Positions 62,509-63,053 of a DNA stretch of 64,000 nt are shown piece by piece. The position numbers and the translations under genes are program-made. Each line of letters opens with the position of its first letter. The stretch's first letter is position 1. Below the pieces are notes generated by a model. The model saw nothing but the letters and a program-made list of their open reading frames with translations. It searched no databases and was not told the origin of the DNA. The stretch comes from Alphaproteobacteria bacterium (lineage in GTDB: Bacteria; Pseudomonadota; Alphaproteobacteria; Rhizobiales; Xanthobacteraceae): the NCBI GenBank assembly GCA_005884685.1, contig VBAH01000017.1, positions 147,152-211,151 of the forward strand. The letters are read 5' to 3'.

Positions 62509-62555
62509 GTCATTCCGGGGCGCGCCGAAGGCGCGAGCCCGGAATCCATAACCAC
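62509..62555. repeat. F-orientation hairpin unit flanking the 3' end of the GIY-YIG gene
   Basis: GTCATTCCGGGGCGCGCCGAAGGCGCGAGCCCGGAATCCATAACCAC, 3 nt from the ligA start codon. Confidence 0.9.
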
Positions 62556-62559
62556 GATC

Positions 62560-62844
62560 CTATCGAGTGATCTCATCGTAAAGGTCATCCCAATTCGGAT
62601 TGTCTTGCTCGATCAGGTTGACCTTCCATTCGCGCCGCCACTTCTTCAGTTCCTTCTCACGCTCTATCGCGGAGGCTGGATCATCGCAGCCTTCAAACCA
62701 GACGAGATGTACGACATTGTGCTGTGAGGTGAAGCCTTTGATCAGCTTGTTCTTGTGCTGGTAGACGCGACGAACGAGATCCCTGGTGACTCCGATATAG
62801 AGCGTTCCGTGCTTGCCGCTCGTGAGAATGTAGACCCAGTACAT
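62560..62844 (-). CDS. Small stand-alone GIY-YIG nuclease-domain protein (94 aa)
   Basis: MYWVYILTSGKHGTLYIGVTRDLVRRVYQHKN...REKELKKW: GIY..YIG, conserved Arg and Glu. The track ORF is extended through the upstream repeat; start trimmed to M at 62844. Confidence 0.85.
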   Translation of the reverse strand: MYWVYILTSGKHGTLYIGVTRDLVRRVYQHKNKLIKGFTSQHNVVHLVWFEGCDDPASAIEREKELKKWRREWKVNLIEQDNPNWDDLYDEITR

Positions 62845-62854
62845 CGTGAGACTT

Positions 62855-62901
62855 GTGGTTATGGATTCCGGGCCCGGCCCTTCGGGCCGTCCCGGAATGA
62901 C
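62855..62901. repeat. R-orientation hairpin unit flanking the 5' end of the GIY-YIG gene
   Basis: GTGGTTATGGATTCCGGGCCCGGCCCTTCGGGCCGTCCCGGAATGAC, 10 nt upstream of the GIY-YIG ATG. Confidence 0.9.
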
Positions 62902-62914
62902 GCCCACCATTTCC

Positions 62915-63053
62915 GTCATTCCGGGGCACGCGCGTAGCGCGTGAGCCCGGAATCCATAACCACGAATCCCTCGATTTTGAACCCACGGTGCGCCAAACTT
63001 GTCATTGTGGTTATGGATTCCGGGCTCCGGCCTTCGCTCGGCCCCGGAATGAC
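62915..63053. repeat. Inverted pair of the same family (F 62915-62963, R 63007-63053), 43-bp spacer
   Basis: Same architecture as the other pairs. Lies between the GIY-YIG element and the recN stop. Confidence 0.85.

Follow-up and report, generated by a model that had tools for sequence, protein, structure and literature searches.

The closest described system to the locus reported here is the partnership of Ssn nucleases with short DNA hairpins, defined first in Neisseria by Chenal et al. (Nat Commun 2025, PMC11893778). Members of the Ssn family (CDD cd10448) have about 94 amino acids, with GIY-YIG as their single domain; their hairpin target is termed NTS in Neisseria (CGTCATTCCCGCGMAVGCGGGAATCYRG), with SRM as the general name. 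Recognized by Ssn is a hairpin of the form GTC-palindrome-C, which is bound in single-stranded DNA (ssDNA) only and cleaved a few nucleotides 5′ of the hairpin; the three bases 5′ of the palindrome weigh most in cutting and the 3′ C in binding, and there is no cleavage of the reverse strand, of double-stranded DNA (dsDNA) or of RNA. Specific binding and cleavage have been shown by experiment for four homologue/hairpin pairs. The residues mutated in N. meningitidis (Nm) SsnA were Y6, Y17 and E64, and the N. meningitidis enzyme reduces transformation by NTS-bearing DNA. Among homologues, an SRM is found nearby in 71% and on both sides in 42%. The discussion of that paper likens NTS-ssnA-NTS to an insertion sequence and raises the REP/RAYT analogy as a domestication hypothesis.

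Between recN and ligA in the alphaproteobacterial DNA analysed here (a stretch of 64 kb, referred to as the window) is a 94-residue open reading frame (ORF) for a single-domain GIY-YIG nuclease (62560–62844, minus strand; stop codon at 62560–62562), which we refer to as ssn. The Pfam GIY-YIG domain (PF01541, E = 4.7e-19) spans residues 1–76 of the 94, and no other Pfam domain is present. Enclosing the gene are two SRM-type hairpin units, one on the stop-codon side (62509–62555, plus strand, GTC end outward towards ligA, GAA loop, −17.1 kcal/mol) and one, inverted, on the start-codon side (62855–62901, minus strand, GTC end outward, −16.3 kcal/mol). Between the ORF and these units lie 4 nt on the stop-codon side (unit end at 62555) and 10 nt on the start-codon side (unit start at 62855). 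The flanking host genes are ligA, for NAD-dependent DNA ligase (60385–62505, minus strand; assigned from its ORF and from the Pfam families of the identical gene in contig L001), and the 3′ part of recN (63062–63928, minus strand), whose listed ORF begins at an internal GTG and which in the identical contig L001 has a full length of 553 amino acids. From the recN stop (63062) to the ligA start (62505) the spacer measures 556 bp and contains four units together with ssn. An earlier note on this DNA had described the spacer as filled in just this way and had placed the nuclease gene inside the last of six repeat pairs at distances of 4 and 10 nt; the coordinates, the ORF and the Pfam match agree with both statements. 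Elsewhere in the 64-kb window there is no second ssn (paralogue). The Ssn protein has no match among 50,697 phage records.

The Neisseria sequence used for comparison was the N. gonorrhoeae chromosome NZ_CP119140.1, mislabelled as a plasmid in PLSDB, and the protein compared is consequently the gonococcal orthologue, not N. meningitidis SsnA. Searched against this chromosome with tblastn, the window protein gives an E-value of 3e-17, lower than the threshold of 1e-10 used in PMC11893778. The gonococcal ORF is 94 amino acids long, has Y6, Y17 and E64, and is followed by NTS units; with BLASTP, 52 of 89 residues (58%) are identical in a gapless alignment (E = 3e-37). Aligned with its Tyr/Tyr/Glu residues are Y5, Y16 and E63 of the window protein, predicted to be catalytic, of which E63 is invariant among 29 close homologues and Y5 and Y16 are nearly so. 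A protein search seeded with a betaproteobacterial homologue brought up no named Neisseria protein, and among PDB sequences the Ssn protein has just weak matches, to UPF0213 and SLX1, none of them a solved structure of an Ssn. The weakness of the match to the UPF0213 protein BH0048 (PDB 1zg2, E = 0.064) would argue against membership of the neighbouring YhbQ-type family. Taking the protein and its flanking repeats together, we consider it highly probable from sequence comparison that the 94-residue ORF encodes an Ssn-family ssDNA endonuclease and that the 38–47-nt repeats are its cognate SRM/NTS-type hairpins. This pairing of nuclease and hairpin is real, but it is already described: the author of the earlier note knew of no description of such a pairing, and Chenal et al. 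report Ssn with SRM/NTS hairpins, including the insertion-sequence and REP/RAYT analogies. In the literature on GIY-YIG combined with MITE, Bradyrhizobium, RAYT or REP, PMC11893778 was the only paper of this kind that a search brought up; its main text makes no mention of Bradyrhizobium, REPINs or MITEs.

In its common, 38-nt form the unit opens with GTC; the outer stem that follows has 8 bp (ATTCCGGG/CCCGGAAT) and is separated by a small internal loop from an inner stem of 6 bp, which a GNA-type triloop closes, and the last base is C. Directly 3′ of this final C is a conserved extension, CATAACCAC. Units were detected as a perfectly paired stem of 7 bp or more with GTC before it and C after it. 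This detector recovers all 12 units of the window, each of which has the form GTC-[stem]...[stem]-C with an ATTCC...GGAAT palindrome. From the window and related loci, 74 distinct 38-nt units were drawn, in which the GTC and C positions are invariant, partly by construction of the detector; the invariance of the outer stem is also in part imposed by the detector’s own requirement. The variable inner stem of these 74 units is paired in 97.9% of cells, compared with 85% in shuffles, and its covariation score is 0.31, compared with 0.078 in shuffles and at most 0.04 with the pairing partners slid. As ssDNA, single units are predicted to form hairpins of −16 to −17 kcal/mol (z about −3).

The published degenerate SRM sequence, HGTCWYN(0-2)YYVSBRHN(0-5)WNVSBRGN(0-2)RNCYNB, does not match anywhere in the window: the loop length for which the pattern allows is exceeded by the inner stem of the window unit. 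We treat this miss as a limit of the search tool and not as a biological criterion, and cognate recognition is therefore inferred from the conserved determinants rather than from a pattern match. As long two-tier hairpins are missed by the published pattern, SRM censuses probably undercount genomes that carry them.

A search of the window for the core CCGGAATCCATAACCAC, with at most 3 mismatches, returned 12 copies, compared with 0.08 expected in shuffles. All 12 lie within 53225–63023 and are grouped as six plus/minus pairs with their CCATAACCAC ends inward, the 12 complete units falling inside 53192–63053; this bears out the earlier description of six inverted, inward-facing pairs of identical geometry. 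All pairs are intergenic and lie no more than about 10 nt from a gene end, which is in most cases a 3′ end. Five of them enclose no gene, as previously stated, and their interiors, measured from CCAC to GTGG, are 43–57 nt (n = 5); the earlier note gave 43–62 bp.

These five unstranded doublets differ in their surroundings. Directly past the stop of the gene at 52651–53184 is the doublet at 53192–53345, and directly past the stop of the gene at 53474–53959 is the doublet at 53970–54119. The doublet at 54804–54989, in an intergenic spacer, has in its left arm (54804–54874) a nested insert (54825–54858), the same as that found in the right arm (60310–60380) of the doublet at 60211–60380, where a nested insert of 38 nt (60326–60363) occupies the loop. 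This latter doublet fills the spacer that separates ligA from the convergent MFS-transporter gene. Located between the ssn module and the recN stop is the doublet at 62915–63053, which has an interior of 43 nt and, folded whole as ssDNA, reaches −50.5 kcal/mol (z = −9.5). It is missing in the closest relatives (L082 and L163–L169), where the module alone fills the spacer. We considered whether it is the positional homologue of the whole L163 module, one arm being identical at 39 of 40 positions and the ‘ggaaATGG’ that follows resembling the L163 ligA start, and rejected this, since the very same arm variants turn up in genomes that are not related (L010, L007 and L011, for example).

The association of gene and hairpins extends well beyond the window. 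When genomes, one for each species, were scanned with a homologue alignment, 80 ssn-homologue loci emerged; at 41 of these the gene lies inside a ‘+-’ pair with GTC ends outward; random 285-bp segments of the same loci are bracketed in this manner at a rate of about 0. The earlier proposal that hairpin family and nuclease belong together is supported by this count. At the 41 loci, the forward unit lies about 15–24 nt 5′ of the start codon and the inverted unit 12–15 nt past the stop codon. The bracket is present in Bradyrhizobium, Pseudolabrys, Rhodopseudomonas and betaproteobacteria, and in metagenome-assembled genomes (MAGs) labelled Ignavibacteriales, Zixibacteria, Dehalococcoidales, Omnitrophota and Kerfeldbacteria. 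In distant taxa the stems show compensatory changes, with GTC(A/G)T and ATCC(A/T) retained. Because the distances from arm to start codon and from arm to stop codon are conserved across phyla, arms and gene appear to be co-inherited. At four of these distant loci, with homologues 59–64% identical (L028, L049, L067 and L071), the flanking units match the Nm NTS consensus without its first C; checked by hand, the SRM pattern accommodates this consensus. In a Bradyrhizobium subfamily, one tight pair (GGAATCTCGAGATTCC) stands on either side of the gene, with GTC ends towards it, so that the position inside a pair is common and not universal. Counted across all loci, neighbouring units are ‘+-’ in 106 cases, ‘-+’ in 31 and in the same orientation in 12.

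The gene-bearing module has a conserved address. The closest homologues (85–87%) all occur in the order ftsZ-lpxC-bamD-recN-ssn-ligA-MFS, and the order recN-ssn-ligA is conserved in this clade and in many genomes of Bradyrhizobium, Rhodopseudomonas and Pseudolabrys. Overall, ssn is positioned between recN and ligA, mostly antisense, at 23 of the 80 genome loci. Comparison of ssn with L082 gives dN = 0.093 and dS = 1.35 (dN/dS of about 0.07), and ssn is under purifying selection. Owing to this synteny and this ratio, the module in this clade is taken as old, selected and vertically kept; it is not recently hopping, and in this it resembles a vertically kept RAYT.

The pairs that enclose no gene behave differently. 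Using the LigA N terminus, a metagenome scan recovered 80 orthologous recN-ligA loci. In about 35 of them the spacer is empty and 9–30 bp long; several have a pair only, of this or of other hairpin families; and others contain ssn (L082, L109/L110, L133, L150 and L158, and also L122, L131 and L137). At L094 the pair encloses a decayed ssn (a pseudogene), and at L160, L155 and L147 a solo unit remains with the start of ssn, consistent with deletion at a GTAG microhomology. Beside the module of L150, the pair is present in three tandem copies. On a LigA tree, ssn-bearing loci are scattered among empty ones, and empty, pair-only and gene-bearing states are intermixed. Contigs with 90–94% identical ligA 5′ ends have unrelated spacer contents. 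At the ligA-MFS junction, the site of the window pair 60211–60380, contents differ even between same-species strains that are 96–98% identical over 7.4 kb and have identical Ssn: the junction is empty in L164 and L166, occupied by a pair of another hairpin family in L165 and L167, and by a third repeat in L168. In relatives, hairpins of several unrelated families are found in these same spacers. The empty pairs are thus the dynamic part of the system, gained or lost between close relatives. Presence/absence polymorphism, which the earlier note had suggested looking for in orthologous recN-ligA spacers, is what these spacers contain. Of the mobile family that it had advanced, gain and loss at orthologous sites is borne out for the repeat pairs; the gene-bearing pair, syntenic and vertically kept in this clade, is not a hopping element there.

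The biochemistry of the four published homologues suggests how the components may work together. Folded in ssDNA, the unit would be bound by Ssn and cut a few nucleotides 5′ of GTC, and the complementary strand, dsDNA and RNA would be left uncut. With the GTC ends of every pair outward, there would therefore be one cuttable site per strand, at the 5′ boundary of the element on that strand. By analogy to a RAYT between its REPs, the chromosomal module would be a long-resident ‘domesticated’ copy, the product of which may act in trans on the dispersed pairs. Such action may restrict or trim ssDNA that carries pairs, as in Neisseria transformation, or may initiate the copying of pairs.

GIY-YIG enzymes hydrolyse DNA and are not known to form a covalent intermediate, and strand transfer by the enzyme alone is not expected; any spread of repeats would therefore need host replication or repair. 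Our tentative proposal is that Ssn and the hairpin pairs form a REPIN/RAYT-like partnership in which a hydrolytic GIY-YIG ssDNA nuclease takes the place of a HUH transposase. The vertically kept ssn between recN and ligA would supply a single nick at the boundary, 5′ of the outward GTC on the strand that happens to be unpaired, and from this nick the host machinery of replication or repair could duplicate pairs into further spacers at gene ends.

A related and similarly doubtful explanation, raised as a hypothesis also by the authors of PMC11893778, is that unit-ssn-unit is an active mobile element and the empty pairs are deleted, non-autonomous copies mobilized in trans, in analogy to REPIN/RAYT or to an insertion sequence with its MITEs. 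Its layout, with terminal inverted arms of about 47 nt, is indeed that of an insertion sequence; neighbouring units are predominantly inverted with outward GTC, pairs are gained and lost between near-identical strains, the states of the recN-ligA spacer are scattered over the LigA tree, and L150 has tandem pair copies by its module. Set against these features are the synteny and vertical inheritance of the gene-bearing module, in the clade and widely in related genera, and the hydrolytic chemistry of GIY-YIG enzymes. Neither the six pairs nor the comparisons of filled with empty sites reveal a convincing target-site duplication, the latter being too unclean to exclude one of 1–3 nt. The interiors of the empty pairs also show no significant resemblance to that of the module. 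Aligned with the ssn-module interior by Smith–Waterman with shuffles, the five give P = 0.064, 0.17, 0.20, 0.53 and 0.88, none significant; the borderline value belongs to 54020–54072 in the doublet 53970–54119, the only interior with such a match to the ssn 3′ end, a 10-mer. The earlier note had reported about 17 nt of similarity inside three of the copies. The inner flanks of the 12 units match one another slightly more often than expected, but weakly and diffusely: 17 pairs reach 8 or more matching positions out of 17, compared with 5.1 expected, and the best pairs, at 10 of 17, are at chance level for random 17-mers (P = 0.45). The derivation of the empty pairs by internal deletion of a gene-bearing element, as proposed there, thus has no significant support from the alignments, and the only clear decay products, the L094 pseudogene and the L160 solo unit, are ordinary deletions and not pairs.

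If ssn were instead a homing-type, free-standing GIY-YIG ORF inserting into pre-existing empty pairs, the alternative offered in the earlier note, one could account for empty pairs being far more numerous than gene-bearing ones, and for very short pairs with an interior of just GATC between CCAC and GTGG (L019, L036, L043 and L073), the same four bases that lie between the unit and the ssn stop codon in the window. We nevertheless regard homing as very improbable. The protein has no homing-type DNA-binding domain and scores 18.1 bits with NCBIfam TIGR01453 (group I intron endonuclease), for which the cutoff is 56, and the published homologues do not cleave dsDNA (PMC11893778). The typical 43–57-nt interior of an empty pair is absent on either side of the ORF in gene-bearing pairs, and the distances from units to start and stop codons, conserved from Bradyrhizobium to MAGs labelled Ignavibacteriales, Zixibacteria and Dehalococcoidales, imply that arms and gene are inherited together. 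We give equally little credence to the reading that the units are ordinary REP-like intergenic hairpins (terminators, mRNA stabilizers or RAYT-driven REPINs), placed around the gene incidentally. The tight apposition of all pairs to gene ends, mostly 3′, is as in REP/BIME, and the sharing of these spacers with unrelated hairpin families in relatives would fit as well; an incidental position is, however, at odds with the bracket at 41 of 80 homologues, with its occurrence in very distant taxa, where stems change in a compensatory manner and the GTC and C flanks are fixed, and with the specific binding and cleavage demonstrated for four homologue/hairpin pairs (PMC11893778). Moreover, the portion of the window that was inspected shows no HUH/RAYT gene, the enclosed protein being Pfam GIY-YIG only.

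Compared with the Neisseria Ssn/NTS system, the probable Ssn and SRM-type hairpins of the window share a 94-residue, single-domain GIY-YIG protein, 58% identical to the gonococcal orthologue and with the same Tyr/Tyr/Glu; flanking hairpins in which an ATTCC...GGAAT palindrome is preceded by GTC and followed by C; and many more copies of the repeat in intergenic DNA. The window unit differs from the NTS in its stem, which is longer and has two tiers (GTC through C measures 38 nt, compared with about 24 nt in the NTS), and in the conserved 3′ extension CATAACCAC; window-type units also occur almost only as inverted pairs with outward GTC. A further difference from Neisseria is that ssn has a conserved position, between recN and ligA, in a clade of soil alphaproteobacteria; another is the setting of natural transformation, to which no evidence links this organism.

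The resemblance to REP/REPIN-RAYT systems is functional only: a single, vertically kept nuclease gene bracketed by its own hairpin repeats, dispersed and strain-variable inverted doublets in intergenic spacers, and recognition of hairpins in ssDNA, which for the window protein would follow from the published Ssn homologues. A RAYT is an IS200/IS605-like HUH Y1 transposase, whereas Ssn is a hydrolytic GIY-YIG enzyme, from which no strand transfer is expected. The GIY-YIG catalytic core is shared with I-TevI-type homing endonucleases and with free-standing phage GIY-YIG genes; in contrast to these, ssn has no DNA-binding extension and no intron or phage context, and its published relatives act on ssDNA only.

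The main addition made by this locus is another member of the Ssn family, from a soil alphaproteobacterial clade near Bradyrhizobium, Pseudolabrys and Rhodopseudomonas. The long two-tier hairpin variant, the residence of the gene between recN and ligA and the turnover of the pairs go beyond the main text of PMC11893778. The conserved recN-ligA slot and the purifying selection on ssn fit the picture of a ‘domesticated nuclease’, which is only a hypothesis in that paper. Should Ssn-driven spread of repeats occur, natural filled and empty sites in strains 96–98% identical, such as the ligA-MFS junction of L164–L168, would be the first concrete substrates for probing it.

As short inverted-repeat elements that fill intergenic spacers, the pairs also resemble the dRS3/NIME and Correia-type repeats of Neisseria and MITEs; MITEs are defined by a parent insertion-sequence transposase and target-site duplications, neither of which is seen here. 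dRS3 is the palindromic core of the Neisseria NTS; a further hairpin family is that of GTCATGCCCGGC.

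Both the recN–ligA spacer (compared loci L082–L161) and, in close relatives, the junction between the convergent ligA and MFS-transporter genes (L163–L168) are tiny and, depending on lineage, are empty or occupied by at least four unrelated families of hairpin pairs. Examples of these families are GTCATGCCCGGC..., GTCATGCCCCGCGAAAGCGGGGCATCCAG, GTCATTGCGAGGC... and GTC(A/G)(C/T)CCTGAGG...CCTCGAAGG. The two spacers look like hot spots for insertion of hairpin pairs at gene ends. At positions 136–233 of the window is an inverted pair composed of two unlike hairpin variants, with left arm GTCATGGCCGGGCTTGACCCGGCCATC and right arm, on the reverse strand, GTCATCACCGGGCCGCCGCGAAGCGGCGAGACCCGGTGAC. 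As the left-arm type recurs in pairs in the recN–ligA spacers of L086, L090, L091, L136 and L140, the window genome probably contains several families resembling the SRM, the hairpin unit with GTC 5′ and C 3′ of its palindrome, each perhaps with its own paralogs of the GIY-YIG nuclease Ssn.

The module formed by ssn and its two flanking units is found in different stages of decay. L094 (3631–4001) retains both arms, enclosing an ssn remnant that is frameshifted and contains stops, and in the spacers of L160, L155 and L147 the ligA-side unit and the first bases of ssn are all that remains; judged by sequence comparison with L158, the latter state is consistent with deletion between two GTAG microhomologies. 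Adjoining the ssn module of L150 are three near-identical tandem copies of a pair (1758–2147; period of 117 bp, including a 14-nt linker), a BIME-like array that probably arose by tandem duplication.

Within a Bradyrhizobium subfamily (L016, L022, L025, L027, L030, L031, L035, L038, L042, L048 and L056), the pairs have no spacer (GGAATCTCGAGATTCC) and two of them enclose ssn with their GTC ends towards the gene, the reverse of the geometry in the window. Ssn homologs with 57–64% identity to the window protein (L028, L049, L057, L062, L067, L075 and L078) come from metagenome-assembled genomes whose labels place them in very distant phyla: Zixibacteria, UBP14, Omnitrophota, Ignavibacteriales, Dehalococcoidales, Kerfeldbacteria/CPR and Latescibacterota. 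The units flanking these genes are near-identical to NTS, the Neisseria version of the repeat, a combination that would reflect either unusually strong conservation or horizontal transfer, although binning errors may lie behind the phylum labels.

Hairpins from different families carry at their apex a conserved, palindromic sequence, CCAT(A/C)AGCGCGTTTACGCGCGTCTTCGACGCGCTATGG, roughly 36 nt long. It is hosted by SRM units in the window (54825–54858 and 60326–60363), in L136 by a hairpin of the CCTGAGG/CCTCGAAGG type, and in L012 and L017 by other hairpins, with further copies in L003, L005, L007, L011 (five copies) and L013. Its appearance suggests either a small element in its own right that lands in hairpin loops or a modular extension of the loop.

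Spurious ORFs in the window (58818–60434, minus strand; 60376–62484, plus strand; 62916–63065, minus strand) are of two kinds, long ones on the wrong strand of GC-rich DNA and short ones reading through repeats, the latter yielding the recurring peptide motifs VIPG...PESITT and VVMDSGL; both could be mis-annotated as hypothetical proteins. In the plasmid collection, NZ_CP119140.1 (L171, 2.17 Mb) and NZ_CP119142.1 are titled Neisseria gonorrhoeae plasmids, yet are chromosome-sized. Both carry an ortholog of the Neisseria nuclease gene ssnA and are apparently mislabelled chromosomes; the matches in Aeromonas (4.9 Mb) and in Sinorhizobium (3.7 Mb) look like a similar case.
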